Assembly (NCBI GenBank): GCA_016214565.1
Contig: JACROE010000002.1
Span: forward strand, 728,007-792,006
Reading direction: 5' to 3'
Source of the DNA: Candidatus Kerfeldbacteria bacterium
GTDB taxonomy: Bacteria > Patescibacteriota > Patescibacteriia > UBA10025 > JAHIVO01
DNA length: 64,000 nucleotides
The first letter of the stretch is position 1. Every line of letters begins with the position of its first letter. Below, in pieces: positions 1,710 to 18,900 of the stretch. The notes beneath the pieces were generated by a model, which was not told the DNA's origin, made no database searches, and worked only from the letters and a program-made list of their open reading frames with translations. Both the position numbers and the translations under genes were made by a program.

Positions 1710-3002
1710 GTGGACGTCATGTCGACAAGGGTAACCGTAGAGAACGAATCATCACTCAAGACTACTGAGGTAGGTGCCATACCCCGGGATTGGGATCTAG
1801 TCTCATTCGATGACGCCTTCGAGTTTCTTCGCACAGCCTCATACTCGCGAGAGCAGCTGGGCGCAAATGGTGATTACCAATACATTCACTACGGGGACAT
1901 CCATACGAAGTGGTCATTTTTTGTTGATATGTCAAAGGCTCGCACTCCAACTGTCGATCGCGGGCAAGCGGGGAATTATAGTCAGATAAAGGAAGGCGAT
2001 CTTATCCTTGCCGATGCCTCTGAAGATTATGCGGGTGTTGCTAAGAGCGTGGAAGTTATTAATCTCGGTGAAAAGAAGGCCATTGCGGGCCTCCACACCT
2101 TCCTCCTGCGAGACAAGGGCAACAACTTCGTTGACGGTTTCAAAGGATATATTACTTCGAGTCCGCTTGTCAAACCTAGCTTGGACCGCTACGCCACAGG
2201 CTTAAAAGTCTTTGGCATATCTAAGAACAACTTGAAACTGGTACCGATTCCAAAGCCACCATCGGAACAGCAGAAAGCCATTGTTAAGGCGCTCAGAGAT
2301 ACAGACGCCTTGATAGAAAGCCTCGAGAAGCTCATCGCCAAGAAGCGAGCAATCAAGCAGGGCGTGATGCAGGAGCTACTGACCGGCAAGCGGCGGCTGC
2401 CGGGGTTTACTAAGGCGTGGACCAGAGAAAGAATAGGAGATTGTACTCAAATCGTCAGCGGTGGCACCCCGCGCACAGATAGAAACCAGTATTGGAACGG
2501 TGGCATTAAGTGGTGTACACCTACCGACATTACTGGCACTTTTGGGAAATACCTTCATGATACTCAGCGATCAATTTCACAGGCGGGTCTCAAAAGCTGT
2601 GCCGCTCGCCTTTTACCTGCTGGCACTCTGCTGTTATGCAGTCGTGCGACCATAGGTGAAGTCAGGATAGCTACGGATCAAATCTGTACCAATCAGGGAT
2701 TCAAATCACTTGTCTGTAGCGATCGAATTGACAACGAGTTTCTTTATTACCTCCTATTGACGCTCAAGCAGAAGATGATTGAGAAGGCGATTGGTTCAAC
2801 ATTTCTTGAAATTGGGAAACGGGAACTGGCTGCGCTTGAAATACCTTATCCGCCCATAGAGGAGCAGAGAGCGATTGCAATGGTCCTTTGCGAATTAGAT
2901 ACCGAATTGGAGTTACAGCAGAGCAGACTGCAAAAGTTGACCCAGGTTAAGCAAGGCATGATGCAATCTCTCCTAACTGGTAAGATAAGACTAACAGTGT
3001 GA
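1710..3002 (+). CDS. hsdS: Type I restriction-modification specificity subunit HsdS
   Basis: 430 aa with two target-recognition halves. Each is followed by the conserved HsdS repeat: PPSEQQKAIVKAL...KRAIKQGVMQELLTGKRRL and PPIEEQRAIAMVL...QVKQGMMQSLLTGKIRL. GTG start 1 nt after the hsdM stop. Confidence 0.9.
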   Translation: MDVMSTRVTVENESSLKTTEVGAIPRDWDLVSFDDAFEFLRTASYSREQLGANGDYQYIHYGDIHTKWSFFVDMSKARTPTVDRGQAGNYSQIKEGDLILADASEDYAGVAKSVEVINLGEKKAIAGLHTFLLRDKGNNFVDGFKGYITSSPLVKPSLDRYATGLKVFGISKNNLKLVPIPKPPSEQQKAIVKALRDTDALIESLEKLIAKKRAIKQGVMQELLTGKRRLPGFTKAWTRERIGDCTQIVSGGTPRTDRNQYWNGGIKWCTPTDITGTFGKYLHDTQRSISQAGLKSCAARLLPAGTLLLCSRATIGEVRIATDQICTNQGFKSLVCSDRIDNEFLYYLLLTLKQKMIEKAIGSTFLEIGKRELAALEIPYPPIEEQRAIAMVLCELDTELELQQSRLQKLTQVKQGMMQSLLTGKIRLTV

Positions 3003-6000
3003 CTACTATGACAAAAGAAGCGACCCCCAAAGTTGGCCAAATCGAACGCAAGACCCAAGACCGTCTTGTGGCGTTGATTCGTGACCGTCTGAATTACGAC
3101 TACCTTGGCAACTGGGAAGACCGTGAAGATAATAGCAATGTCGAGGAGCTACTTCTTCACTCGTACCTGATTCGGTCCGGATATAGTGACACACTCGTAT
3201 TCAAAGCCGTTGAGGAGCTGAAGAAATGTACAGGTCGATCGAACATCAGCCTATACGACCTTAACCGTGAGACGTACGGTCTGTTGAGGTACGGGGTGAA
3301 AGTCAAGGAAGGTCACGGCGAACACTATAAGACTATTTGGCTCATCGACTGGGAACACCCCGAGAAAAATGACTTCGCTTTCGCAGAAGAGGTTACGGTC
3401 AAAGGGAATCGGACCAAACGCCCGGATATCGTGCTTTATGTAAACGGAATTGCCTTAGGCGTGATCGAGTTGAAACGGAGTATCGTATCGGTTGCCGAGG
3501 GAATCCGCCAGAACATCGGTAATCAAAAGGACGCTTTCATCAAGCCTTTCTTCGCAACCGTTCAACTGCTCATGGCCGGAAACGATACCGAAGGACTTCG
3601 ATTCGGCACTACCGAGACGAAAGAGGACTGCTACCTCACTTGGAGTACAAAGGAGCCGGGATATGAGAAAGACAATCGGCTTGATCGCCATGTTTTGCAA
3701 ATGTGCGAAAAGAAGAGGTTCCTCGAGATCGTTCACGACTTCATTGCCTTCGACAGCGGCATTAAGAAGACCTGTCGGCACAACCAGTACTTTGGAGTCA
3801 AAGTAGCGCAGGAATTCGTGCAACAGCACAAGGGCGGAATAATCTGGCATACCCAGGGCTCAGGTAAGAGCCTGACCATGATCTGGCTCGCTAAGTGGAT
3901 TAAAGAACACATGCACGATCCACGCGTACTTGTTCTGACCGACCGAAAAGAGCTTGACGAGCAGATCGAGCGGTTTTTCATGGGCGTAGATGAGAAGATC
4001 TATCGCGCGAAGAGCGCAAGGGATTTGATAGGGCAACTCAATATCAAGAATGAGTGGCTGCTCTGTTCGCTAGTGCACAAATTCGGCCGTACCGGAGCCA
4101 CCGGTGAGACCGACGTGGATGGATACATCGCCGACCTCAAGAAGAATCTGCCAAAAGACTTTTCGGCCAAAGGCGATCTTTTCGTGTTCGTCGATGAGTG
4201 TCACCGTACGCATACCGGCAAGCTTCACGAAGCGATGAGAGAGCTCCTCCCCAACGCTACATTCATCGGTTTCACTGGCACGCCGCTTCTCAAAATTGAC
4301 AAGTCGAACAGCATTGGCGTTTGGGGCCCATACATCCACACCTACAAATACGACGAGGCAGTGGCCGACAAGGTTGTGCTCGACTTACGATACGAAGCTC
4401 GACGCGTAGACCAAGACATCACGTCACAGGAGAAAATCGACCAGTGGTTCGAGGAACGAACCAAGGGGCTCACCGACGTAGCCAAGGCGGAACTGAAGAA
4501 GCGGTGGGGGACGATGCAATCCCTGTTGTCTTCCAAGTCACGCTTGGAAAAAGTAGTCTTCGATATTCTCGATGACTTCTACAAAAAAGAACGTCTCGCC
4601 AGCGGCCGCGGCAACGCCATGCTGGTAGCGAGCAGCATTTATGAAGCCTGCCAGTACTACGAGATATTCCAGGCTCAGGGATTTACCAAGTGCGCCATCG
4701 TCACGTCATACGAGCCTGGCGCGATTCAGTCCGAAGACCGCGAGTACGCCATCTACCAGAAGATGCTGGGTGGCAAGGCCACCGAAGAGTTCGAGAAGGA
4801 AGCCAAGAAGAAGTTCATCGAAACACCAGGACAGATGCAACTTCTCATTGTCGTGGACAAACTCCTGACTGGTTTTGACGCACCGCCTGCGTCCTATCTG
4901 TATGTCGATAAGAACATGCAGGATCACGGCCTATTCCAGGCGATTTGCCGAGTCAATCGGCTCGACGGTGAGGACAAAGAGTACGGCTACATCGTCGACT
5001 ACAGGGATCTTTTCAAAAAGCTTGAACAAGCGGTCACCGACTATACTGCCGGAGCATTCGAAGGCTTTGATCAAGAGGATGTTCTTGGGCTACTCAAGGA
5101 CAGGTTAGAAGAAGGTCGCAAAGATCTCGAGGAAGCTCTAGAGGTCGTAAGAGCTCTTTGTGAACCAGTTGCGCCGCCCAAAGATTCTGGAGCCTACATT
5201 CGCTACTTCTGTGGAGACGTTGAAAATCCATACGCCCTGAAGGAAAACGAAATCAAGCGGGTCAAGCTCTACCGTTCCGTCAGCCATCTACTTCGAATGT
5301 ATGCCGATCTCGCCAACGATATGGAGAAGGTCGGATTCTCCAGAGCGCAAGCCGAAGCGATCGGCAATGAGGTAAAGCACTACGAACAGGTCCGGATGGA
5401 AGTCAAGCTTGCAAGCGGAGACTACATCGACCTGAAGAAGTACGAGCCGGCCATGCGGACTCTTATCGACAGGTACATTTCGGCAAAAGAAAGCGAAAGG
5501 CTATCCGCGTTTGATGACATGACCCTCGTGGATTTGATCGTCAAAAAGGGCAAAGATGCCATCGACGACCTACCGGAGTCGGTGAAAAAGAACCAAGAAG
5601 CTACCGCTGAGACAATCGAAAACAACGTCCGCAAGCTGATCATCGACGAAACGCCTACGAATCCGAAGTACTTTCTCCGCATGTCGGAGCTCCTCGATAC
5701 CTTAGTGAAGCAGCGGAAACGGGCTGATATCGAGTACAAGGAGTACCTGGCCAAGATTGTCGAGCTTACTAAGCAGGTCAAGCACCCGGAACAGTCGCGT
5801 CATTATCCTTCGCGGGTTGATACACGAGCCAGACAGGCACTCTATGATAATCTCGGACAGGACGAGGGTAAAGCTGTTGCCCTGGACGAGGCAATTGTAG
5901 GCGCACTGGAAGACAACTGGCGTGGTCACATGCAGAAGGAACGTCGGGTGAGGAACGCAATTAAGGGCGCGATGCCGGGGATATCGGAGGACGAGCTCAA

Positions 6001-6040
6001 GTCCTTATTTGAGCTCGTAAAGAATCAACATGAGTACTAA
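2999..6040 (+). CDS. hsdR: Type I restriction enzyme R subunit HsdR (SF2 helicase/translocase + nuclease)
   Basis: 1013 aa. Walker A-like QGSGKSLTM, DEAH-box FVFVDECHRT and helicase motifs are present. The start overlaps the hsdS stop (GTGA), giving translational coupling. Confidence 0.9.
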   Translation: MTTMTKEATPKVGQIERKTQDRLVALIRDRLNYDYLGNWEDREDNSNVEELLLHSYLIRSGYSDTLVFKAVEELKKCTGRSNISLYDLNRETYGLLRYGVKVKEGHGEHYKTIWLIDWEHPEKNDFAFAEEVTVKGNRTKRPDIVLYVNGIALGVIELKRSIVSVAEGIRQNIGNQKDAFIKPFFATVQLLMAGNDTEGLRFGTTETKEDCYLTWSTKEPGYEKDNRLDRHVLQMCEKKRFLEIVHDFIAFDSGIKKTCRHNQYFGVKVAQEFVQQHKGGIIWHTQGSGKSLTMIWLAKWIKEHMHDPRVLVLTDRKELDEQIERFFMGVDEKIYRAKSARDLIGQLNIKNEWLLCSLVHKFGRTGATGETDVDGYIADLKKNLPKDFSAKGDLFVFVDECHRTHTGKLHEAMRELLPNATFIGFTGTPLLKIDKSNSIGVWGPYIHTYKYDEAVADKVVLDLRYEARRVDQDITSQEKIDQWFEERTKGLTDVAKAELKKRWGTMQSLLSSKSRLEKVVFDILDDFYKKERLASGRGNAMLVASSIYEACQYYEIFQAQGFTKCAIVTSYEPGAIQSEDREYAIYQKMLGGKATEEFEKEAKKKFIETPGQMQLLIVVDKLLTGFDAPPASYLYVDKNMQDHGLFQAICRVNRLDGEDKEYGYIVDYRDLFKKLEQAVTDYTAGAFEGFDQEDVLGLLKDRLEEGRKDLEEALEVVRALCEPVAPPKDSGAYIRYFCGDVENPYALKENEIKRVKLYRSVSHLLRMYADLANDMEKVGFSRAQAEAIGNEVKHYEQVRMEVKLASGDYIDLKKYEPAMRTLIDRYISAKESERLSAFDDMTLVDLIVKKGKDAIDDLPESVKKNQEATAETIENNVRKLIIDETPTNPKYFLRMSELLDTLVKQRKRADIEYKEYLAKIVELTKQVKHPEQSRHYPSRVDTRARQALYDNLGQDEGKAVALDEAIVGALEDNWRGHMQKERRVRNAIKGAMPGISEDELKSLFELVKNQHEY

Positions 6041-6758
6041 TTCTTACATGCTCAAGGTCGGATTGGTGGAGGCGCTGATTGTCAGGAAGGCGATCAAGAA
6101 CGTCCACCTGTCTGTTTTGCCGCCAGAGGGTAAGGTTCGAGTCACCGCACCAGTTGCGATGAACGATGACGCTATCCGCATATTGCTGGCTACCAGGCTG
6201 GGCTGGATAAATCGTCAACAAACGAAATTCCGCAATCAGCAACGACAGACTCCGCGAGAATACGTATCCGGTGAAAGTCACTACCTATTCGGCAGGCGGT
6301 ACCGCTTAGAAGTCCGATACGAGGAAGCTCCACCCCGCGTTGAAGCGAAGGCCAACGGAAAACTGTTCCTATATGTCAGACCGAACGCTTCTCAGGGGAA
6401 GCGCCACGAGGTGATAACCGAATGGTACCGTACCGAGCTTCACCAGCTACTTGAAGACTTGATACCGAGATGGCAAGACAAAATCGGTGTTCGACCATCT
6501 GTATGGGCTATCAAGCGCATGAGGACCCGGTGGGGCACCTGCAATAAGGACAAAAAGCGGATTCTTCTAAACCTTGAGCTAGTCAAGAAGCCGGTCTCCT
6601 GCATTGAGTATGTTGTGGTTCATGAACTGATCCACTTGATTGAGAAGAAGCACAATAATCGATTCGTCCAGTTGCTGACGAGGCATCTGCCGAAATGGAA
6701 GAGCCAAAAGCAGGAACTGAATCGCTTCATATTGTCGCATGAGGAGTGGAGATATTAG
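6030..6758 (+). CDS. YgjP/DUF45-family zinc metallohydrolase (M48/WLM-like), common accessory gene of Type I R-M loci
   Basis: 242 aa. HExxH motif VVHELIHLIEKKH plus WGTCN... are typical of the YgjP family. The ATG overlaps the hsdR 3' end by 11 nt. Confidence 0.7.
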   Translation: MSTNSYMLKVGLVEALIVRKAIKNVHLSVLPPEGKVRVTAPVAMNDDAIRILLATRLGWINRQQTKFRNQQRQTPREYVSGESHYLFGRRYRLEVRYEEAPPRVEAKANGKLFLYVRPNASQGKRHEVITEWYRTELHQLLEDLIPRWQDKIGVRPSVWAIKRMRTRWGTCNKDKKRILLNLELVKKPVSCIEYVVVHELIHLIEKKHNNRFVQLLTRHLPKWKSQKQELNRFILSHEEWRY

Positions 6759-6779
6759 CAAATAGGGAATATCATACTC

Positions 6780-9700
6780 ATGAAGTGGATAACTGCATCA
6801 GACATCACCAACTGGGCAAACACACAACAGCGGCAGTGTTCTCAGACCTTGCCGGAGTTAGTACGTCGCCTGATTTTTGCTATCACTTCCGATATTCGAA
6901 CGATTGAATTCCCGAGTGGAGACAGTGTATCCACCAGAGGTTGGGATGGCCGACTCGATGCACCCGTAGCTGTCCCGTTTTTTCCGCAAGGCGTGTCGGG
7001 GTGGGAAATTGGCTCTGATAAATCGGCCAAGAAAAAGGCCGATGGAGACTTTGCCAAACGGATTGCTGAGCCTGACGGGCTTATTCCCGCTGATACCACT
7101 TTTGTCTTCGTTACTCCGAGGTCGTTTCCGAGCCGCGCGAAATGGCAATCTGATAATCAAGCAAAGGGACACTGGAAGGCGGTGCGAGTTGTTGCGGCAG
7201 ACGGGATTGAACAGTGGTTGGATTCTGCGCCGGCGGTAGCGCTATGGTTGGCGAGAACAATTGGCAAAGCAACCGGAGATAGACTCCGAGACATCGAAGA
7301 GTGTTGGGATGAATGGTCCTATTCGACTTCACCTCCCATGAGTATCCCGTTGGTAATTGCAGGACGCACAAATGAACAGGATAGAATTCACAAGTGGCTA
7401 TCGGAAACACCCGATAGGCTTGAAGTTCAAGGTGATTCTCCAGCTGAAGCGCGTGCCTTTCTGTATGCTGCAATCTGCGGCTTGCCGGAGAGCGAACGTT
7501 CGCGAGTGCTCTCAAGATGCATAGTGATTGATAATTTAACGGATCTCCGTAATTGTATAAGAACGTTTCTCAATCCGTTGGTTATTGTCACTACTTCTGA
7601 TTGCAGTGAGGCGGTTGGCCTCGCTATCAACAAGGGACACCATGTCTTTGTCTGTGTGGATGCAAGTGTGATAGATATCGCTCGAATTTTACGTCTTTCC
7701 CGTCCGAAAAGGTCAGCAGTAGCTGCCACCCTGCAAGAATTGGGCTTGTCGCCAGCTAACGCCCAACAACTCGCGCGGGATTTCGGGCGAAGCATCCCGG
7801 TACTCCGCCGCCACTTAGCCGTATCGGGTGCTGCCCGGCGGCCACCGTGGTCAGAAGCCGACCAGGCACGGTCTCTCATGCCATTGATGCTACTTGGTTC
7901 AATTTCTGAAAGTACAGACGGGGACAAACAAATTGCTGAGATAGTCTCCGGGTTCTCATTCACTGTTTATGCCGAACGGCTTAATGAGCTTAGAGTATTC
8001 GAGGATAGCCCTGTAGTAAAAATTGGAGAAGTATGGACACTCAAATCGCCGCTCGACTCTTGGTTTTTGATCGCGGGACAATTGACCGCAGATATTCTCA
8101 CCGCATTTTCGAGTGCGAGCACGCAAGCGTTAGAAGAACTGCATCCGAAGTATGAGCTATCACCCGACGAACGGTGGATGGCAGCTTTTCATTCCAAGAT
8201 TAGGCAATATTCCCCGCATTTGCGAATGGGTCTTGCCGAAACTCTGGTCCGTATGTCGGTCTTCGGTGATAAAGCACCGATCGCGCTATCCGCTCCTCAA
8301 GTCGCACAGCAGGCGGTGCGAAATATCTTGTCAGCAACAACCAGTTGGCAGGGGTGGGCTTCAATACAGGACATTACTCCGCTGCTAGCCGAGGCCGCAC
8401 CCGTAACATTTCTCGAAGCTGTGGAACAAGTTATTGCCACCCATCCTGAAATCGTTACAGAATTGTTCAAAGATGAGGGTCAATCGCTCTTTGGGGAGTG
8501 TAAGCATGCTGGCCTGCTGTGGGCACTTGAGTCTATCGCCTGGGACCCACAGTACTTTGAGCGCGTCGTTGCTTTATTAGTCGACTTGGCGAAGTTAGAC
8601 CCAGGTGGACAGTGGGTAAATAGGCCCCTGAACAGCCTCAAGGATTTGTTCTTACCCCAATACCCACAGACTCACGCGGGCCCGACGGCGCGGTTATCGG
8701 CGTTCGAAACCCTCATACAAAGAGACGCTCAGCTAGCCTGGCAGATCGCATACAGTTACTTCGATCGCGGAATCATTAGTGCCTCGCATCAATATCAATG
8801 GCGTGATGCCGGAGGCGAGCGCCGAGGGTTGGAACCGGAGTCCAATGAGAACTATGCTGCCTACCTGACGGGATTATGGCCTAAAGCGAAGGCACTGGCG
8901 GCGATGCCAATAAATGTAATACAGGCACTAGACGACTTTACAAGACTTCCACCGGACTTTCGTGAACAGGTTGCGTCCGTTCTGTTGTCAATGAATGCCG
9001 AAGAACTGTCTTTGGATGATCGACTTCGGTTATTAGAAAAGGTGCGAGAAGCTTTGAACTGGATTAACAGCTATGGTAAGGAGGAGTATCAAGAGTCAAT
9101 ACCGAAACTAAAGGAGATACTACAGCGCTTTGAGCCAGATGACGTTATTGAACGTGTCGGCTGGCTATTGAAGTCGCCTTGGCCACGTCTTCCCGAAGGA
9201 ACAACTAAAGATTACGACGCTGACGAAGAGCACGTTGCAGCGTTGCAACAGCAGGCCGCGCGTGAGTTACTCGACAGTATTGATATTGAAGCTATTCTCA
9301 GCTTTGCCAAGACGACAGAATACACTGGCGTTGTGGGTACTGCTATAGGGAGAGCGATAAAAGATGACGAAGAAGACCAGCGAGTGCTAAGCCAGCTTAT
9401 CAAGGGAGCTTTGCCAACCCAGGCTCGCGAAGTAACAGGATATGCCGCGCAACGAATACGCATCGCCGGAATACATTGGATCGACCGGCAAATAGCGTAC
9501 CTGAAAACTGTTGGCGTAGCAACACCGGAGGTCATTGCATTAATGCTCTTGGGACTACCCGAGCAAGCTTCGACGTGGGAAAAGGTCGCAGCGTTTGGGA
9601 TTGAGGTAGAGAAAGCTTACTGGGGACTAGCGACAGGGCGTTCGCGTTCAGATCGACTCTCAGATGCTGCTTTGGCAGTAACGAAGCTGTTGAATGCTCA

Positions 9701-10568
9701 TCGACCGGATGCTGCGCTTGAGATTGCTGGGGATCCCAAGTTATCTTTGCCCAGTGCATTACTGAAGCGCCTATTGCTCGAGCTGTTGGAGCACAGCAAG
9801 TCTGCAACACAACCTCGTCACGATGCGATGCTGCCTTTTCACTTGGGATATGTATTCAGGCAGATTCACGAGCGCGATGAGTTGCCGCTGGGAGAGATTG
9901 TAGCCCTGGAATGGCCCTATGCCTCATTGTTCGATGATTTCAAACAGTATTTGTCTAAGCCCTTGGCCATCCACCGACTATTACAGCGCGACCCTGGTCA
10001 GTTTGCCGATTTCGTCGCGCTCATGTACAAACGCGATGACAGAATCCGAACAGATGAAGAGCCGCTTGACCAAAAAGCCATGCAAATCGCCAGAAACGCG
10101 CGTGAGGTCGTATCATCCTGGCGGCTTATGCCGGGTCTGAGTTCTGACGGCGGTATTGATGAAGGCGAGCTTCGTGCTTGGGTTCTCGCCGTGCGCGACA
10201 AGTGCAGATCTCTGAAGACAGTAACTGGCTGCGATATTGAACTAGGCACCATGTTAGCGCACGCCCCTCGCGATAGCGATGGAAATTGGCCTCATACGGC
10301 TGTCAGAAACATCATCGAACTACTGGCAAATCAGACTATTGATCGGCATATCGAAACAGAGCTGTTCAATAGTCGCGGCACAACGGTGCGTAGCCCAGGA
10401 GAAGGTGGCAGGCTGGAGAGAGAGCTCGCGCTAACCTATCGCCGGATGAGCGACGCGCTGAAAGAGAAGTGGCCAAGAACCGCTCAAATCTTGCGCTCCA
10501 TGGCTAGCACCTACGAGCATCAGGCGGGTCGGGAAGATATTGATGCGCAACTGAACGACTTCAGTTGA
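6780..10568 (+). CDS. Large uncharacterised protein (1262 aa), alpha-helical-repeat rich with a distinct ~180-aa N-terminal domain; function unknown
   Basis: Long uninterrupted ORF, co-directional and 21 nt downstream of the YgjP-like gene. No Walker A, no HEPN Rx4-6H motif and no obvious PD-(D/E)xK motif were recognised by eye. The N-terminus is ...SGDSVSTRGWDGRLDAPVAVPFFPQGVSGWEIGSDKS... Confidence 0.6.
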   Translation: MKWITASDITNWANTQQRQCSQTLPELVRRLIFAITSDIRTIEFPSGDSVSTRGWDGRLDAPVAVPFFPQGVSGWEIGSDKSAKKKADGDFAKRIAEPDGLIPADTTFVFVTPRSFPSRAKWQSDNQAKGHWKAVRVVAADGIEQWLDSAPAVALWLARTIGKATGDRLRDIEECWDEWSYSTSPPMSIPLVIAGRTNEQDRIHKWLSETPDRLEVQGDSPAEARAFLYAAICGLPESERSRVLSRCIVIDNLTDLRNCIRTFLNPLVIVTTSDCSEAVGLAINKGHHVFVCVDASVIDIARILRLSRPKRSAVAATLQELGLSPANAQQLARDFGRSIPVLRRHLAVSGAARRPPWSEADQARSLMPLMLLGSISESTDGDKQIAEIVSGFSFTVYAERLNELRVFEDSPVVKIGEVWTLKSPLDSWFLIAGQLTADILTAFSSASTQALEELHPKYELSPDERWMAAFHSKIRQYSPHLRMGLAETLVRMSVFGDKAPIALSAPQVAQQAVRNILSATTSWQGWASIQDITPLLAEAAPVTFLEAVEQVIATHPEIVTELFKDEGQSLFGECKHAGLLWALESIAWDPQYFERVVALLVDLAKLDPGGQWVNRPLNSLKDLFLPQYPQTHAGPTARLSAFETLIQRDAQLAWQIAYSYFDRGIISASHQYQWRDAGGERRGLEPESNENYAAYLTGLWPKAKALAAMPINVIQALDDFTRLPPDFREQVASVLLSMNAEELSLDDRLRLLEKVREALNWINSYGKEEYQESIPKLKEILQRFEPDDVIERVGWLLKSPWPRLPEGTTKDYDADEEHVAALQQQAARELLDSIDIEAILSFAKTTEYTGVVGTAIGRAIKDDEEDQRVLSQLIKGALPTQAREVTGYAAQRIRIAGIHWIDRQIAYLKTVGVATPEVIALMLLGLPEQASTWEKVAAFGIEVEKAYWGLATGRSRSDRLSDAALAVTKLLNAHRPDAALEIAGDPKLSLPSALLKRLLLELLEHSKSATQPRHDAMLPFHLGYVFRQIHERDELPLGEIVALEWPYASLFDDFKQYLSKPLAIHRLLQRDPGQFADFVALMYKRDDRIRTDEEPLDQKAMQIARNAREVVSSWRLMPGLSSDGGIDEGELRAWVLAVRDKCRSLKTVTGCDIELGTMLAHAPRDSDGNWPHTAVRNIIELLANQTIDRHIETELFNSRGTTVRSPGEGGRLERELALTYRRMSDALKEKWPRTAQILRSMASTYEHQAGREDIDAQLNDFS

Positions 10569-10625: not shown

Positions 10626-11417
10626 ATGCCCAACGGCGGCGGACAAATCGACCTGAAACACTGGCTCCAAGAACATCGGGAAATCTCCGATGAGGATTTT
10701 CGGTTCCTGATTGGGCATTCTCTCAGCCATCTTCGCATTCCTTTGACCGGAGTCCTGGGCTATCTGACGATGCTCGTCGAAGGGGACTTCAAGGCGCGAG
10801 AATTCTCCACAATTCACAAGTCGCTCAAAGAAACAGTACAGGAAGCCCTCGATACGCTAAGTGATGTTATGAAATTGAGGATTGCCTACGCGCGACAATT
10901 TGCACCGAAGACCAAGCAAAACAGCGCAAAGAAAGGACTAAAAAGAGTACTGCATTTCGAAGACGATAAGATGCTCACAAAGATATACCGAGTACGATTC
11001 GAACTGGATGGACTGCAGTACGAACCGCGAGAAACTCCCGCGCCCGATCCAGTAGCTTTAGTGAAAAGCGTTAAACCCGACCTCATCCTCATGAGTGTCA
11101 TTATGCCAGAAATGGATGGGTTTAGCGCGACCAGATTACTGAAGGGCGATCCGGAGACGCGAAACATTCCTTTATTATTCCTGACAAATCTCGGACAAAA
11201 GGAAGATATCATTAAGGGAATGAGCCTTGACGCGGTCGATTACTTGGTCTCTGCGCATTACACTCCCTGGCAGGTCGTCGACCGAGTGCGAGAGGTGTTG
11301 AAACTACCCAGACTCAAAAGAGATGAAAAGCTCTATCCGCCATTACCGACTCAGGGTAGTCGGGTGCCAAGGTACCAGGACATTCCGAAGGATGAAACGA
11401 TTAACCGTGCGGCATAG
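10626..11417 (+). CDS. HisKA-like (DHp H-box) domain fused to a degenerate receiver (REC) domain; no HATPase domain
   Basis: The H-box is HSLSHLRIPLTGVLGYL. The REC-like C-terminus is DLILMSVIMPEMDGFSATRLLK...LLFLTNLG...DAVDYLV, where the phospho-acceptor Asp position reads Ser and the conserved Lys before Pro is missing. Confidence 0.55.
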   Translation: MPNGGGQIDLKHWLQEHREISDEDFRFLIGHSLSHLRIPLTGVLGYLTMLVEGDFKAREFSTIHKSLKETVQEALDTLSDVMKLRIAYARQFAPKTKQNSAKKGLKRVLHFEDDKMLTKIYRVRFELDGLQYEPRETPAPDPVALVKSVKPDLILMSVIMPEMDGFSATRLLKGDPETRNIPLLFLTNLGQKEDIIKGMSLDAVDYLVSAHYTPWQVVDRVREVLKLPRLKRDEKLYPPLPTQGSRVPRYQDIPKDETINRAA

Positions 11418-12552: not shown

Positions 12553-13185
12553 ATGAAAATTACCCCAGACAAAGAGACAATTGCCCGCGAACCGAAAGCA
12601 GAACAGGGCGTGCCAGACTACGCGAAATCACCGCGCGGTTTTTTGGTTGAGCTGATAAAAATCGTTTTGATCGCCGTGGTGATTATTATTCCGATCCGGT
12701 ATTTTTTGTTTCAGCCGTTTTACGTCCGTGGCGCCTCCATGGAGCCGAATTTCCACGACAATGAATATCTCATCATTGATGAAATTACCTATCGTTTTAC
12801 TGAGCCGCAGCGTGGAGAGATTGTGGTAGTTCGGGATCCAAAGAATCATGCTGAATTTTTGATTAAACGTATTATCGGTTTGCCGGGTGAGACCATTCAG
12901 GTGATCGAGGGCAATGTATACATTTACAATCAGGAAAATCCGGAGGGAAAAATATTATCTGAGCCATACTTATTTAGTCACATAGTTACGACGCATGATC
13001 AGCGGGTGGAGGTAGGCTCGGATGAATATTTCGTGATGGGGGACAACCGACCGGTTAGCCTGGATTCGCGGAGCTTTGGCCCTATTTTGAAAAAAAATAT
13101 TGTGGGACGTGCCTGGCTTCGGGTGTGGCCGTTTGAAACTTTTACTCACTTTTCTGTGCCAAGTTATAGTACGCAATCACAATAA
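12553..13185 (+). CDS. lepB: Signal peptidase I
   Basis: N-terminal TM helix. Catalytic Ser box GASMEPNF, Lys box KRIIGLPGE and GDNRPVSLDSR are present. Confidence 0.9.
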   Translation: MKITPDKETIAREPKAEQGVPDYAKSPRGFLVELIKIVLIAVVIIIPIRYFLFQPFYVRGASMEPNFHDNEYLIIDEITYRFTEPQRGEIVVVRDPKNHAEFLIKRIIGLPGETIQVIEGNVYIYNQENPEGKILSEPYLFSHIVTTHDQRVEVGSDEYFVMGDNRPVSLDSRSFGPILKKNIVGRAWLRVWPFETFTHFSVPSYSTQSQ

Positions 13186-13192
13186 TAAATTT

Positions 13193-14674
13193 ATGAAACC
13201 TATGCCGCAAAAGAAATCAGAGAAAAGCAAAAAACCGTTGCAACTCCTGCGAGGGTTTAAGGATATATTGCCCGAGGAACAGCAATATTGGGATTATGTA
13301 CGGACGACCGTTGAACGTTTGGCCCGTACGTTTAGCTTTGCTCGGATTGAATTACCATTGCTTGAGGATGCAAATTTATTTATCCGATCAGTTGGAAAAG
13401 AGACTGATATCGTGGAAAAAGAAATGTATGTCTTTGAGGACAAGTCCGGCGATACCGTAGCATTGCGACCGGAGGGGACGGCCGGCGTCGTTCGTGCGTA
13501 TATCGAGCATGGCATGATTACTCGGCCCCAGCCAGTAAAAATGTATTATGTTGGCCCATTTTTCCGTCATGATCGGCCGCAAGCAGGACGTTATCGTCAG
13601 TTTAATCAGTTTGGATTTGAGGTGATTGGGGATGCGCATCCCGTGATTGACGCCCTCCTTATGATGATGGCGTATACTATATTTAATGATGTGGGCGTGC
13701 CGGTAACCCTGCAGGTAAATAGTCTCGGCTCTCCGGAGTGCCGCCGCAATTACGTGAAAGCGCTCCAGGAATACTTCAAAACCCGCAAGAATTCATTGCC
13801 TGAAGAAGATTTGAAACGGCTGCAAACAAACCCACTACGCTTATTGGATAGCAAAGAGCCGGACACACAAGTGCTCGTCGAGGGTGCGCCACAGATTGTT
13901 GATTTCCTTGACGACGAATCAAACAAGCATTTTATCAAAGTGCTGGAGCATTTGGATGAATTAGATATTCCCTATGTGTTGAATCCACGACTGGTGCGCG
14001 GTTTGGATTATTATTCTCGCACTGCGTTTGAGATTTGGCCGGTACCCTATGAAGAACCACCGCAACCAGAAGCGCCAGCGCCCGAGCCAGTCAAAGGTCA
14101 TCATAAGCCAGAAGAAGAAAAACCAGTGGAAGAAAAATTAGAAAAGCTGGATAAACCGTCAGCGCAGAGCGCATTGGGCGGCGGCGGCCGGTATGATTAT
14201 CTCGTGGAGCAGTTGGGCGGACAGCCGACGCCAGCCATGGGGTTTGCGTGCGGCATTGAGCGATTGATTTTGGAAATGAAGTTGCGCCATATCTCTCCGG
14301 GCAGCGTGGTGAGTCCGGATATTTTTCTGGCTCAGCTTGGCGATGAAGCGCGAAAGAAGGCGCTGAAAGTTTTCAATCAGTTGCGTGCAGCTGGCTTCCA
14401 AGTCGCTGAAAGTTTTTCTAAGAATGGTTTGAAATCCCAGATGGAGCAGGCAAATCGTTTGGGCGTCAAATATACGGTTATCATCGGTCAGAAGGAATTG
14501 ATGGATGACACGATTTTGATTCGAGATATGGAGAGTGGCATTCAGGAAACATTTGATTTCGAGAAAATGATTCCCGAATTGACGAAGCGTCTGCGAAAGA
14601 ATGGGACGAATGGTGCAGCGCCCATCATGCCCCCCGTTCCGCAGACCGACCTCAATCAGCCGAAACTTTTATGA
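13193..14674 (+). CDS. hisS: Histidyl-tRNA synthetase, with a Pro/Glu/Lys-rich low-complexity insertion
   Basis: LRGFKDILP, LRPEGTA and YYVGPFFRHDRPQAGRYRQFNQFGFEVIG (class II motifs) are present. The start was chosen at ATG 13193, just after the lepB stop. The ORF-track start at 13100 overlaps lepB. Confidence 0.9.
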   Translation: MKPMPQKKSEKSKKPLQLLRGFKDILPEEQQYWDYVRTTVERLARTFSFARIELPLLEDANLFIRSVGKETDIVEKEMYVFEDKSGDTVALRPEGTAGVVRAYIEHGMITRPQPVKMYYVGPFFRHDRPQAGRYRQFNQFGFEVIGDAHPVIDALLMMMAYTIFNDVGVPVTLQVNSLGSPECRRNYVKALQEYFKTRKNSLPEEDLKRLQTNPLRLLDSKEPDTQVLVEGAPQIVDFLDDESNKHFIKVLEHLDELDIPYVLNPRLVRGLDYYSRTAFEIWPVPYEEPPQPEAPAPEPVKGHHKPEEEKPVEEKLEKLDKPSAQSALGGGGRYDYLVEQLGGQPTPAMGFACGIERLILEMKLRHISPGSVVSPDIFLAQLGDEARKKALKVFNQLRAAGFQVAESFSKNGLKSQMEQANRLGVKYTVIIGQKELMDDTILIRDMESGIQETFDFEKMIPELTKRLRKNGTNGAAPIMPPVPQTDLNQPKLL

Positions 14675-15015
14675 CCGAGCAGTGCATTTTTTGCAGTATC
14701 GTCCAGGACGCAAAGCCTGAGGTACTTATTTTCCGCGGGAAACACATCGTGGCATTCCACGATATTTCTCCAAAAGCGCGCGTGCATGTCTTGGTCGTGC
14801 CCAAGGTGCATCGTGAATCACTCAATGCAATTACGCCAGCTGACTCCGAAATGATCGCTGAATTATTTGGTTCCATTCCTACGATTGCCGAACAGCTCGG
14901 CATTCGTCACAGCGGCTACAAAGTCGCGATTAATACCGGGGCTGATGGCGGGCAGGTAGTACCGCATCTGCATATTCATGTGCTGGGCGGAGAGCCACTT
15001 TCAAGCTTGGTCTAA
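14671..15015 (+). CDS. HIT-family (histidine triad) nucleotide hydrolase
   Basis: HLHIHVLGG histidine-triad motif. 114 aa, overlapping the hisS stop. Confidence 0.85.
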   Translation: MTEQCIFCSIVQDAKPEVLIFRGKHIVAFHDISPKARVHVLVVPKVHRESLNAITPADSEMIAELFGSIPTIAEQLGIRHSGYKVAINTGADGGQVVPHLHIHVLGGEPLSSLV

Positions 15016-15063
15016 TGATCAGAAAAGTACCAATTTGGGCTTTTTTCCGCTATTCAGAATAAA

Positions 15064-15093
15064 TTGACAATACTCCATCTGGCGTGTTATAGT
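15064..15093 (+). promoter_or_regulatory. Sigma70-like promoter for rpsU (TTGACA, 18-nt spacer, TATAGT)
   Basis: TTGACA at 15064-15069 and TATAGT at 15088-15093. The SD AAGGAAGGTG lies before the GTG start at 15155. Confidence 0.5.
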
Positions 15094-15154
15094 AACAACG
15101 ATTTTTGAGAGTAAATTATTTGAACTAACTTTTAGAAAGGAAGGTGACATTTCA

Positions 15155-15445
15155 GTGGTTGAAGTAAAAAAACGAGAAGGCGAGTCTCCCGAAAGTCTGC
15201 TCCGGCGCTTTACTAAGCGCGTTCAATCATCCGGCGTTTTACTCCGGGCGAAGCAGGGGCGGTATTATGCTCCGAAGCGCAGCAAACTTGAGCTTAAAGA
15301 TGCAGCCGCGCGCCGTCAATTGATTACCGAAAAGAAAGAATTTCTCCGCAAAGTTGGCAAGCTTGAAGAATTTATTGATCCGCGCCGACCGAATAAGCGC
15401 GGCACTATCAAAAAATTGCTCCAGGCAAAAATTCGCAGCAAATAA
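15155..15445 (+). CDS. rpsU: 30S ribosomal protein S21 (GTG start, C-terminally extended)
   Basis: VEVKKREGESPESLLRRFTKRVQSSGVLLRAKQGRYYAPKRSK matches the S21 signature (ALRRFKR...G...E.RRR.YEKPS). Confidence 0.8.
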   Translation: MVEVKKREGESPESLLRRFTKRVQSSGVLLRAKQGRYYAPKRSKLELKDAAARRQLITEKKEFLRKVGKLEEFIDPRRPNKRGTIKKLLQAKIRSK

Positions 15446-15457
15446 TTTGTCATTCTC

Positions 15458-15901
15458 ATGACCATTACTGAACGAATCGATGCTGACCTGAAGCAGGCCA
15501 TGCTGAAGAAAGAGGCGAAGCGCCTCTCGGTATTGCGTATGCTTAAGAGCGCCATCCACAATCGCGCCATTGCCGATCGCGTCAAAGAATTATCAGACGA
15601 TCAGGTGGCAAAAGTATTAAAAACAGAATCCAAGAAACGCAAAGATTCGATTGAGGCGTACACCACAGGCGGCCGGCGAGATTTAGCGCAACAGGAATCT
15701 GATGAAGTAGATATCATAAAAGAATATTTGCCCGCCGAACTTGACGAGTCTGCTGTTCAGGCAATCGTTGATACCGTGGTTGGGGAATTGGGGACTGGAG
15801 CGGCTTTTGGCGCCGTGATGAAAGAAGTGATGGCGCGCAGTGCTGGCCAGGCAGATGGCAAACTTGTTTCCTCGCTCGTCAAGAAAAAGATTGGTTCGTA
15901 G
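15458..15901 (+). CDS. yqeY: GatB/YqeY-domain protein
   Basis: DLKQAMLKKEAKRLSVLRMLKSAIHNRAI...DGKLVSSLVKKKI follows the typical YqeY pattern, directly downstream of rpsU as in many bacteria. Confidence 0.8.
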   Translation: MTITERIDADLKQAMLKKEAKRLSVLRMLKSAIHNRAIADRVKELSDDQVAKVLKTESKKRKDSIEAYTTGGRRDLAQQESDEVDIIKEYLPAELDESAVQAIVDTVVGELGTGAAFGAVMKEVMARSAGQADGKLVSSLVKKKIGS

Positions 15902-15967: not shown

Positions 15968-18900
15968 GTGAAAGATACACTGAAAAAAAATAAAAATTCA
16001 CTTTTGGGCGTCTTTGGGTTTTTGCTTATCGTGGCAATTGTTGGCGCGGCGGGCTGGCTTGCCGTACCGGAAACGAGCGCGCAAGTGAATCTGGATCCAA
16101 ATCTCGGTACTACGTTTGGTTTGGGAACGGCGGATCTATTGTCCACGGTGATTAACATTGTTCAGTGGGCGCTTGGATTCCTTGGTTTGATTGCGGTCAT
16201 ATTTATCATGTATGGCGGTTTTGTCTGGATGACGGCGGCCGGCAATCAGGAAAAGGTGGAAAAAGCCAAGAAGATTATTACGCGGGCGGTGATTGGTCTG
16301 GTGATTGTCCTGTTGGCTTGGGCCATCGTTACCTTTATCGTTGACCGAGCGCTTGATCTGACGGGTGGCAATGGCAGTAGTTGTACGGATGGTGATGTGA
16401 ATGGATGCTATCTGTGCTCAAGTGGCTCATGGGTGTATCAAAATGCGTGGCCGGGCTGTAATGCGGGCGGGGCTAATTTCTTTGATGTCGTGGATACGTA
16501 CCCAGCGGACGGGCAGACTGGCGTGTATCTCTGTAGTATCGTTCAGGCGGAATTTAATGGGAATATTGATGCGGCTACGGTTCCGGGCGCGGCGTTTGTC
16601 TATGTGAACGGCGGCGGTCAAAATGGCGATGCCTGTACTGCTAACACCGATTGTGCGTCTGGCGTTTGTGCGGCTACTTGCCAGGGGAATTCAGTGCCAG
16701 GCAATTGGAACGCCAGCGGCGATACGTTAGAATTTTTGCCTAGCCAAGAGCATTTGCCGAACACCATTTATCAGGTTTATTTATGCGGCAGTGGGGCGGG
16801 CAATCCTGACTGCACCAGCCAGATAGAGGAAGACGCAGCGACACCGAGACAATTTATCGGTGAAATCTGGTTCTTCACGACCGGCAATTCGACGCTGAAT
16901 GAACCGCCTGAGGTGACGGCCATCTATCCGGCTGACGCGGCTGCCAATATTTGTCTGAATACGACTATTGCGGCGAATTTCAGCCAGCCGATTCGCAAGG
17001 CATCGCTCAATGCCAATACGGTGCAATTCACCACCGGCGGCGGACCGGTTGGTTTACGCACACCTTTTAGCATCCCTAGCACGTGGGATTCTTTCTCGAC
17101 CCGGCCGAGCAATGCCATGACCGCTGGCGCGGAATATAATGTCAAACTTATTGCTGGCACACCTGGCAACACGGATCCGAATAACGGCATCATGGACGTC
17201 TGCCTGAATCATTTGGATGGTGATTATAATAATAATGAAGACGGCAGCCCGGGTGATGATTTCATGACTATCAATAATGAGCCGAGCGGCGGTGAAGTGG
17301 CGCCGTGGAATTTCTTCGCGGATACCGACACCACCAATATCGAGTGCACCCCGGAGATCAGCAGTATCGTTCCGGCCAGTCAGCGGTATGATGCTGATCC
17401 CGGCATCACCATCAATGGCAGCAATCTCTCCATCAACGGCGATATCCGATTTGAATTGAACGTGATGCACGACAACCGCTGCATGGATGTGAATGGCACG
17501 CCCAATCAAGCTTGTGTCGCGAGTTGGACCGGCGATCAAATCAGTACGCGCATTCCTGCTGGACCAGTTGCCTTTGCCGGTGAATCACCCTCGGCTGGTG
17601 CGGCTGACGGTAATGTGCGCGTGGAGATCGGCGCGGGCGATGATGAGAAGAGTAATACTTACGCATTCGACGTTTCCAGTCCGCAGATACGCCGGGCCTT
17701 AGGCATCAATAATCAGGCGCATGGCGGCATCAGCCAGGCGGTCAAGCTCGAACGGCGCACGGGGAACGCCAATGACGGTTTTGGAGCACCTGGTACCGTT
17801 GAGTTTTTCAATATTTCTACCCAGGCACGAATGCCGGCGGATACGCTGAATTGCAGCACCACCTGGACTAATAATTACGCGTTGATTAAAGTACCCGATT
17901 TATCTAGTATCGGCGTGACCGCGTGCGACACTTCAATTTACAGCTGGTATGACTGCCCCACCGCAGTGCCAAATTCGGTGGTTGGCATTCAGTTATTTGG
18001 CGCAGGCGGCGCTCAGCCGAGCAACATTATTAAATTTATTTATACGACAGAAACGCCCGGACCAGTGCTCTGTGAAGTGGTGCCTGAGTGTGGCAATGCC
18101 GGAGCGGCAATAACCTTAACCGGTGAGGCGTTTGGCGCATCTCAGGGGAGCGGGCGGGTGTGGATTTCATCGCCGCCAGTTTCCGCCCCGGTAACCGGTT
18201 GGAACGAGGGTACCATCACCGCCACCGTGCCAAATCTGCGGAATGGCGTGCATGAGGTGAACGTTGAAGATGATAATGGCAAATCATCATACTCCATGGA
18301 TTTTCAGATTCCGTGCGGCGACATTCCTCAGGTCGTAGAAAATGCCAGTTGCGCCGCAACCTGCAATGGAGGACCGAACGATGGAAATTTGTGCAGCGAC
18401 GATAGTCAGTGTCCGGGTGGCGCTTGTCAGATCTCCATGGCGTCCCCGAATCCCTATAAAGGTACTGATGACGTGTGCGTGAACGCCATGTTTGGCGCGC
18501 GATTTACCGTGCCGATGAATACCGGTACATTCAATGCGAATATCATTTTGGAGAGTTGCGGCAATGATAGTTCCTGCGCTGCACCGGTGGCCGTCACGCA
18601 TAATATGGGAACTTTTGGTGCCCCGCTGAATGAACGATTTATCATGCAGCGCACCGTCGCAGGGGTGCCGACTGATCTGGATCCAAATACCTACTATCGT
18701 GTGACCATTCGCCGTCAAGTTGAGAGTACAACTGGCGCGCGAATGAACGCAGATTATGTGTGGCTGATTAAGACCAAGGCTGACACCGGCCCCTGTCCGG
18801 TGGAGAATGTTATGGTCACGCCGGGAAATGCGGTGCTCTATAATATCGGGGATACAGAACCATATCTCGCTACTGCGATTGGTCCGAATTGTGCCTTGCT

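Follow-up and report, generated by a model that had tools for sequence, protein, structure and literature searches.

The DNA examined here is a stretch of 64,000 nucleotides, called the window below, from a Candidatus Kerfeldbacteria bacterium (contig JACROE010000002.1, positions 728,007 to 792,006). Directly behind a Type I restriction-modification (R-M) operon, it carries a gene for a large protein of 1262 amino acids, which is the target of this analysis. The original prediction, made from the letters alone, saw in it an orphan, non-enzymatic scaffold and a candidate defence component that would serve the neighbouring R-M system. The reading frame on which it was based, from ATG to TGA at 6780-10568 on the + strand, was confirmed. 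Structure models and alignments of relatives gave a three-part architecture. The gene and its parts are located as follows.

6780..10568, + strand: target gene, complete, 1262 residues plus stop (ATG-to-TGA open reading frame and its translation)
6780..7334, + strand: N-terminal PD-(D/E)xK (restriction-endonuclease-like) effector domain, residues 1-185 (AlphaFold model and fold search)
6945..7037, + strand: putative catalytic residues D56 (6945-6947), E76 (7005-7007) and K86 (7035-7037), in the motifs G-W-D-G and W-E-x-G...K-A
7335..7814, + strand: alpha/beta domain resembling a nucleotide-binding domain (NBD; P-loop NTPase fold) without Walker A, residues 186-345 (AlphaFold model)
7425..7451, + strand: degenerate P-loop position, V-Q-G-D-S-P-A-E-A, residues 216-224 (alignment of members)
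7815..8339, + strand: helical domain (HD) and winged-helix-like domain (WHD) completing a STAND-type NBD-HD-WHD module, residues 346-520 (AlphaFold model)
8340..10565, + strand: all-alpha solenoid (HEAT/ARM-like), the presumed ligand sensor, residues 521-1262 (AlphaFold model)
8388..8732, + strand: most conserved sensor segment, residues 537-651, with E538, H576, G-L-L-W-A-L-E (578-584), W588 and N614 (conservation; remote similarity to Avs8 / PD-Lambda-4_A)

The AlphaFold models were built on an alignment of 54 sequences. They reached a pLDDT of 90.8 and a pTM of 0.86 for residues 1-520, and a pLDDT of 87.7 for residues 481-1262. Conservation was counted over 75 members of the family, which share 26-100% identity with the target. 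Conservation within the family is highest in the nuclease domain and in the first part of the sensor (residues 521-700). An N-terminal domain of about 180 residues had been recognized before, but the remainder had been taken for about 1000 residues of helical repeat. Instead, the NBD-like and helical/winged-helix module (residues 186-520) precedes a solenoid of about 740 residues.

Residues 1-185 are predicted to adopt the alpha-beta-beta-beta-alpha-beta core of the PD-(D/E)xK superfamily. D56, E76, A87 and R94 are found in 75/75 members and K86 in 73/75, and the target protein holds every family-invariant residue of the alignment. This restriction-endonuclease fold with its conserved, putatively catalytic D/E/K set and the STAND-type middle part speak against the earlier description of a non-enzymatic scaffold.

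STAND NTPases are defined by a Walker A motif (GxxxxGK[ST]), a Walker B motif (hhhhD[DE]) and an NBD that is followed by helical and winged-helix domains (Leipe, Koonin & Aravind 2004). The succession of NBD, helical domain and winged-helix domain is predicted by the model of the target. The Walker A motif is absent from the target, the 75 members and the 150 representatives of clusters at 50% identity (0/150). Across these members and representatives, the consensus at the P-loop position is h-Q-[AG]-[DE]-[ST]-x-[DE]-E-A. The tripeptide aligned to GK[ST] reads [AG]-[DE]-[ST], so that an acidic residue sits at the position of the Walker lysine in every member examined. E223 is kept in 74/75 members and 146/150 representatives. 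At the Walker B site, a hydrophobic strand (247-250) is followed by E, T, D or R at 251 and by N, D, S or T at 252; a conserved acidic residue is lacking here. A regex scan of the target protein found neither GxxxxGK[ST] nor any GK[ST], HExxH or DEAD/DEAH, as had been noted earlier for the P-loop, HExxH and DEAD motifs. The ATPase seems to have been lost family-wide and not in the target copy alone. Since Walker A is missing and an acidic residue replaces the Walker lysine throughout the family, the switch is predicted to operate without ATP binding or hydrolysis. An active ATPase was considered and discarded because of the degenerate P-loop across the members and representatives. Profiles of STAND families (NB-ARC, NACHT, AAA_16 and similar) in Pfam match neither the target nor, consistently, the 75 members.

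Residues 1-520 were compared with the whole PDB using Foldseek. The top four matches are Avs4 (8dgf) and Avs3 (8dgc), with E-values from 2.4e-7 to 1.6e-6 and a probability of 1.00. They are followed by Apaf-1 and CED-4. The NBD-HD-WHD fold aligns over 245-290 residues with CED-4, Apaf-1, DARK and the plant NB-ARC resistosomes. Unlike what is predicted for the target family, these proteins are nucleotide-dependent; they combine CARD, TIR or CC effectors with WD40 or LRR sensors. No known fold unrelated to nucleic-acid defence, the outcome that was to speak against a defence component, was seen in the structure predictions; the folds found are of the defence type.

The extent of the gene is supported by full-length homologs of 1260-1266 residues that match it over its whole length. 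A protein at NCBI (P0001, Candidatus Kerfeldbacteria, HZC01_03555) is 100% identical to the target and is annotated with only 1020 residues, from a start near residue 243. With this start, the nuclease domain is lost entirely, as is the degenerate P-loop (window 6780-7508, residues 1-242). Since hundreds of full-length homologs also match the upstream 242 codons, the 1262-residue frame is the real gene and the shorter version is not.

Although the target protein has no match in Pfam, NCBIfam or the PDB sequences, the term orphan does not apply: at least 354 matches were obtained among 5.8 billion proteins. The best 120 of these are full-length, share 43-55% identity with the target and nearly all have 1255-1279 residues; their sources include Kerfeldbacteria, Moranbacteria, Parcubacteria, Margulisbacteria and Bryobacteraceae. 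The PHROG family phrog_18693 (function unknown) matches the target from end to end (E 8e-169). In a scan of one genome per GTDB species, a query with the single sequence gave nothing, whereas an alignment-based query detected relatives and 133 loci were confirmed. The 79 loci that were fetched cover most bacterial phyla as well as Aenigmatarchaeota and Bathyarchaeota, with 26-50% identity over the full length. Moreover, 24 plasmids carry the family gene according to tblastn, 11 of which are conjugative. A profile of residues 186-520 was searched exhaustively against 1.84 billion cluster representatives (50% identity clusters). At E <= 1e-3, it matched 3,392 clusters across bacteria and archaea, of which 1,444 also pass E <= 1e-30; the ordinary STAND NTPases, which are far more numerous, were not drawn in. 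The spread across phyla is patchy and includes the candidate phyla radiation (CPR), Omnitrophota, Proteobacteria, Bacteroidota, Planctomycetota, Actinomycetota and DPANN/Bathyarchaeota. The family is thus large, rare per genome and patchy across phyla, which is the pattern of horizontally mobile genes.

At several loci (L026, L032, L056, L070), additional family fragments (open reading frames of 138-384 residues) directly adjoin the full-length gene. At L034 (10001-14890), the family match is stretched to 4.9 kb. These cases suggest frameshifts, insertions or tandem remnants.

Relatives of the target keep one chassis and exchange the N-terminal effector, which can be a nuclease, PNP, SIR2, HetE-N/GapS6a or a module without assignment. 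A PNP_UDP_1 domain was found in P0204 (1498 residues) and P0242 (1754 residues). P0204 aligns to the target from residue ~170 to the C-terminus (30% identity, E 2e-139). The same holds for P0166, which has an unassigned N-terminus of about 380 residues (28% identity, E 6e-129). Since both alignments begin at residue ~170, the nuclease domain alone has been replaced. The P-loops of these relatives are degenerate as well (NADTPGEA in P0204, KGDSTDEA in P0166). A more distant branch keeps residues ~360-1250 only, and its forms of about 1180 residues occur in many phyla. For instance, a Shewanella plasmid protein of 1187 residues adjoins Abi and SieB genes. Another protein of this branch, P0367 (1260 residues), carries SIR2_2. 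At L098 (497-5399), it is directly followed by a Mrr_cat protein of 340 residues, and the pair may be a two-gene variant with a separately encoded nuclease. The 'Phage_integrase' N-terminus of P0260 was set aside as an effector, as it is probably a gene-call fusion.

In forms of about 1340-1360 residues, a helix-turn-helix (HTH) of the Xre/HigA type with about 95 residues precedes the nuclease. Such HTH-fused members are located as follows.

L085, 5713-9777
L086, 152-4264
L087, 5728-9765
L095, 8596-12693

RefSeq/PGAP names members of 1350-1370 residues 'helix-turn-helix transcriptional regulator' or 'HigA family addiction module antitoxin'. These names are a systematic misannotation. They are based solely on the HTH of about 95 residues, and the other ~1260 residues are nuclease, NBD-like module and sensor.

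Another form, of about 930 residues, consists of the sensor only and is always preceded by a HetE-N gene of 106 residues. PGAP/NCBIfam calls this gene GapS6a (NF047935, 136.6 bits against a cut-off of 90). Aligned to the family profile with hhalign, the E. coli protein of about 930 residues gave a probability of 100% (E 3e-68) over 850 columns, corresponding to residues ~362-1250. The pair was found in an E. coli P2-prophage hotspot, on a Buttiauxella plasmid and in a Vibrio prophage. The two prophage pairs are located as follows.

L094, 6001-9119: GapS6a and the ~930-residue protein, E. coli E110019, P2-prophage hotspot between ogr and tail genes
L096, 4676-7787: GapS6a and the ~930-residue protein, Vibrio splendidus prophage, beside lysis and terminase genes

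With the GAPS6 system (GapS6a and GapS6b) of Gamma-Mobile-Trio islands, several coliphages plated less well, by 2-4 orders of magnitude (10.1101/2023.03.28.534373). GapS6b (WP_248387295.1) was published as a TPR + PINc protein (Mahata et al., 10.1101/2023.03.28.534373). No PIN domain is recognizable in the ~930-residue protein, no Pfam, NCBIfam or PADLOC model matches it, and its alignment to the solenoid covers it almost wholly. Its fit to the published description is not obvious, and it is regarded as a candidate GapS6b only. The target family shares its sensor chassis with this neighbour of GapS6a, whose effector comes from a separate gene. In the target protein, by contrast, the nuclease and the NBD-like module are part of the same chain. 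GapS6a was found only beside the ~930-residue relatives and is absent beside the target gene. GAPS6 membership of the target was considered and dropped, as the adjacent genes are a YgjP-like peptidase (upstream) and a response regulator (downstream).

Among the defence libraries, the sole match of the target is PD-Lambda-4_A of PADLOC (PDLC03991), which covers residues 537-651 against profile positions 562-668 of 1283 (20.4 bits, E 2e-5). In a scan of residues 500-760, PDLC03991 is matched by 36/75 members (best E 2.4e-8) and PDLC03990 by 10. No other PADLOC family is matched by more than one of the 75 members. A Shewanella member matches PD-Lambda-4_A in the same region as the target. PD-lambda-4A is Avs8A, which consists of a Mrr nuclease, STAND and a repeat sensor; it degrades DNA after binding major capsid proteins of the HK97 fold (10.1101/2025.07.02.662641). 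It shares the domain order with the target and is nearly equal in size (profile of 1283 positions, target of 1262 residues). It is also the only defence family with consistent profile similarity, always in the segment behind the WHD and at equivalent positions. However, EcAvs8A (WP_000963924.1) has an intact P-loop and a companion, Avs8B, which is dispensable (10.1101/2025.07.02.662641), whereas the target family has no conserved companion. No neighbour corresponding to Avs8B is conserved in the 79 loci, and the gene downstream of the target in the window encodes a receiver-domain protein. Degenerate Walker A/B motifs were described in KpAvs8 (10.64898/2026.01.04.697583). As judged from these alignments, the similarity to Avs8 is real but lies far below family membership. 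Membership in Avs8 / PD-Lambda-4_A was rejected, since one segment is matched and no full-length high-scoring match exists.

The overall design resembles Avs3 and Avs4. These are also single large polypeptides with an N-terminal nuclease effector, NBD-HD-WHD and a C-terminal helical-repeat sensor, and they show effector swapping among relatives and a mobile, patchy distribution. Nevertheless, the target family has no detectable sequence similarity to them, lacks Walker A in every member and hence probably does not bind ATP, and its HEAT/ARM-like sensor has no specific solved counterpart. DSR1 and DSR2 combine an effector domain with a large helical sensor without an ATPase cycle, and the SIR2-bearing relative P0367 recalls them. 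The sensor of Avs7 has been reported as common to the STAND-less Dsr1. In contrast to DSR proteins, the target family retains a complete P-loop-less NBD-HD-WHD between effector and sensor, and it showed no match to DSR proteins, in sequence or in fold. The models and fold searches give what characterizes an Avs protein, namely an effector, a STAND module and a C-terminal repeat sensor, and the effectors vary among relatives. The target would work like an Avs protein, yet outside every defined Avs, PADLOC, Pfam and NCBIfam family. A literature search found no paper describing the family. A recent source counts at least 90 Avs families (10.64898/2026.08.25.746987), and the target family may already be listed among them under another name.

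The genomic context was studied by clustering all predicted proteins up to 10 kb on each side of the gene in 85 sources (84 fetched loci and the window). No partner gene is conserved and no neighbour family occurs in more than 9 loci; a conserved two-gene system was discarded for this reason. The neighbours that recur most often are large serine recombinases, at 9 loci, and small Xre HTH proteins, at 7. The recombinases lie within the 10-kb flanks at 9/79 loci, and close to the gene in 3/4 loci annotated with Pfam. The Pfam-annotated contexts also hold integrases, genes of integrative and conjugative elements (ICE), Type I and Type II R-M systems and DndB. Islands of defence or toxin-antitoxin genes enclose the copies of Thalassospira, in a plasmid island with Abi, SIR2, RES-Xre and AbiEii genes, and of Shewanella (Abi, SieB). 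On a Candidatus Aminicenantes chromosome (L001), the family gene is part of an insert of about 7 kb that also holds HTH genes and a HerA-like fragment. The insert is flanked by an Mg_chelatase fragment of 80 residues (7073-7315) and an Mg-chelatase-type (comM-like) gene of 506 residues (14047-15567), and looks like an island that interrupts a comM-like gene.

On these grounds, it appears likely that the target is a single-gene Avs/NLR-like, phage-sensing abortive-infection nuclease, probably independent of ATP, which travels as cargo of mobile elements and defence islands. The fold, the effector swapping and the genomic context support the candidate defence component of the original prediction. 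This reading draws on the confirmed reading frame, the three-part architecture at the fold level, the conserved putative nuclease residues and the family-wide loss of the P-loop, and on the exchange of effectors on a conserved chassis, the absence of any conserved partner and the surroundings of mobile elements and defence genes. From these, we infer an anti-phage function, a protein trigger, oligomerization, a DNA substrate and ATP independence. The mechanism proposed is modelled on Avs3/4/7/8. The C-terminal alpha-solenoid (residues 521-1262) would bind a conserved protein of a phage or other mobile element, and ligand binding would release autoinhibition. The central NBD-HD-WHD module (residues 186-520) would then drive oligomerization. 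Finally, the clustered N-terminal PD-(D/E)xK domains (residues 1-185; D56/E76/K86) would cut DNA, and the infection would be aborted.

Several points weigh against this explanation. The position of the canonical ExK lysine is occupied by Gly78, and nuclease activity would need a relocated lysine, which K86 on the following helix may supply. A Pfam tally of residues 1-360 of the 75 members (E <= 0.1) gave no consistent Mrr_cat, NB-ARC or NACHT, and the family profile produced only noise against the PDB sequences (E >= 0.5). The Foldseek TM-scores to Avs3/4 are low (0.20-0.25) because the domain orientations differ. Similarity to Avs8 spans only about 110 residues, at about 20 bits. No relative was found in IMG/VR viral contigs by a peptide-pattern scan. 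Beyond the PHROG match, one short uncultured-phage record was matched by tblastn and no other. Many nearest neighbours are housekeeping genes, and defence contexts are known from individual loci. The defence role is deduced from fold, modularity and context.

The strongest alternative, still unlikely, is a selfish module for the maintenance of mobile elements or the exclusion of competitors (addiction, entry exclusion, anti-plasmid or anti-ICE), in which the sensor would detect a competitor protein or the loss of the carrier. The 24 plasmids, the conjugative ones among them, and the serine recombinases, integrases and ICE genes close by agree with this, as does the subfamily fused to a HigA/Xre-type HTH. 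The copy of E. coli HS (WP_000128902.1; 1365 residues, 28% identity over residues 4-1258, E 2e-135) points the same way, as it is found within the remnant of a conjugative element, with a HigA-like gene and a PIN gene next to it. However, many copies are chromosomal and off plasmids, and relatives are found in prophage defence hotspots, paired with GapS6a of a validated anti-phage system. The effectors (nuclease, PNP, SIR2, HetE-N) are moreover typical of abortive-infection systems. The selfish module and the anti-phage receptor are compatible with each other.

The neighbourhood of the gene in the window could suggest another function, namely an accessory or back-up of the adjacent Type I R-M system, e.g., a suicide nuclease that fires upon inhibition of restriction. 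The genes concerned, and the first one downstream, are listed here.

185-1708, + strand: hsdM, Type I methyltransferase, partial (N-terminus cut by the window edge)
1710-3002, + strand: hsdS, specificity subunit
2999-6040, + strand: hsdR
6030-6758, + strand: YgjP-like metallopeptidase
10626-11417: receiver-domain protein (response regulator) of 263 residues, receiver domain only at residues 108-208; first gene downstream of the target

The order hsdM-hsdS-hsdR-YgjP-like-target on the same strand was verified, and exactly 21 nucleotides (6759-6779) separate the YgjP-like gene from the target. No terminator-like hairpin was found between these two genes, and promoter-like matches in the region before the target are at chance level (5 found, 5.3 expected). 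Co-transcription with hsdMSR-ygjP would fit this arrangement. Type I or Type II R-M genes also occur within a few kb at L091, L093 and the P0066 contig. Over 80 non-redundant loci, nonetheless, homologs of HsdM are near the family gene in 3/80, of HsdS in 1/80, and of HsdR and the YgjP-like protein in 0/80. The adjacency is not a property of the family and may result from the chance of island packing. The proposed role as an R-M accessory and the linkage to hsdR, which the original prediction had suggested to look for among homologs, found no support in these counts. No neighbour family is conserved, the copy at L003 stands alone between housekeeping operons, and the architecture is that of an autonomous sensor-switch-effector protein. 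An R-M accessory is therefore very improbable.

Condensin-like and TOG-like fold matches prompted a further alternative, i.e., a housekeeping scaffold or a nuclease of DNA repair or chromosome organization with a HEAT-repeat body; this is considered hardly credible. The least probable reading is a transcriptional regulator or antitoxin, for which the PGAP names of the 1350-1370-residue members and a match of TIGR02607 HigA to residues 7-79 of the E. coli HS protein could be cited, but which derives from the HTH fused in one subfamily: the target has no HTH (alignments start at target residues 1-4), and the ~1260 residues that accompany the HTH in the fused members are unrelated to antitoxins.

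If the preferred reading of an Avs-like abortive-infection nuclease is right, thousands of clusters deserve annotation as Avs-like immune receptors. Their present names are 'hypothetical protein', 'HTH transcriptional regulator' or 'HigA antitoxin', and the family escapes the tools that look for defence systems. The universal loss of Walker A provides a natural test case of whether STAND/NLR-type receptors need a nucleotide switch for assembly. The only precedent found for the loss of this switch is the remark on degenerate Walker motifs in KpAvs8. One sensor chassis ties together Avs8/PD-lambda-4, the partner protein of GapS6a and the relatives bearing SIR2 or PNP. Episymbiotic CPR bacteria, with genomes of about 1 Mb, spend 3.8 kb on such a receptor. 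Through the homolog in E. coli HS, this hypothesis can be tested directly. The family nevertheless lies inside a crowded and well-understood class.

A wider proposal is offered more tentatively and with some doubt. Within an ancient and very large STAND-derived superfamily of immune receptors without a nucleotide switch, the target may represent the form to which a nuclease is fused. This superfamily would include the large subunit of GAPS6 and reach CPR bacteria and DPANN archaea. If so, NLR/Avs-type signalling by ligand-induced oligomerization can run without ATP, and surveys of STAND proteins that started from NTP-binding motifs have overlooked a major branch of the pattern-recognition receptors of prokaryotes. 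Such a superfamily would not have been described as such before.

Some minor observations were made in the rest of the window. The YgjP-like open reading frame overlaps the end of hsdR by 11 nucleotides (6030-6040), an arrangement that points to translational coupling to the Type I R-M operon. In contrast to the target, the YgjP-like gene may be a genuine R-M companion at this locus, although it has no homolog at the 80 loci of the family. About 100 N-terminal residues of the receiver protein are without assignment and no output domain was recognized; a homolog of it lies near the family gene in 1/80 loci. Behind it follow housekeeping genes for a zinc-ribbon protein, signal peptidase I and hisS. 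The open reading frame of signal peptidase I (12553-13185) and the longest one of hisS (13100-14674, TTG start) overlap by 86 nucleotides. The true start of hisS is probably further downstream, since its match begins at residue 48. About 5 kb downstream of the target, an open reading frame of 2713 residues with a GTG start extends over 15968-24109, and the GC skew is strongly positive at its start.

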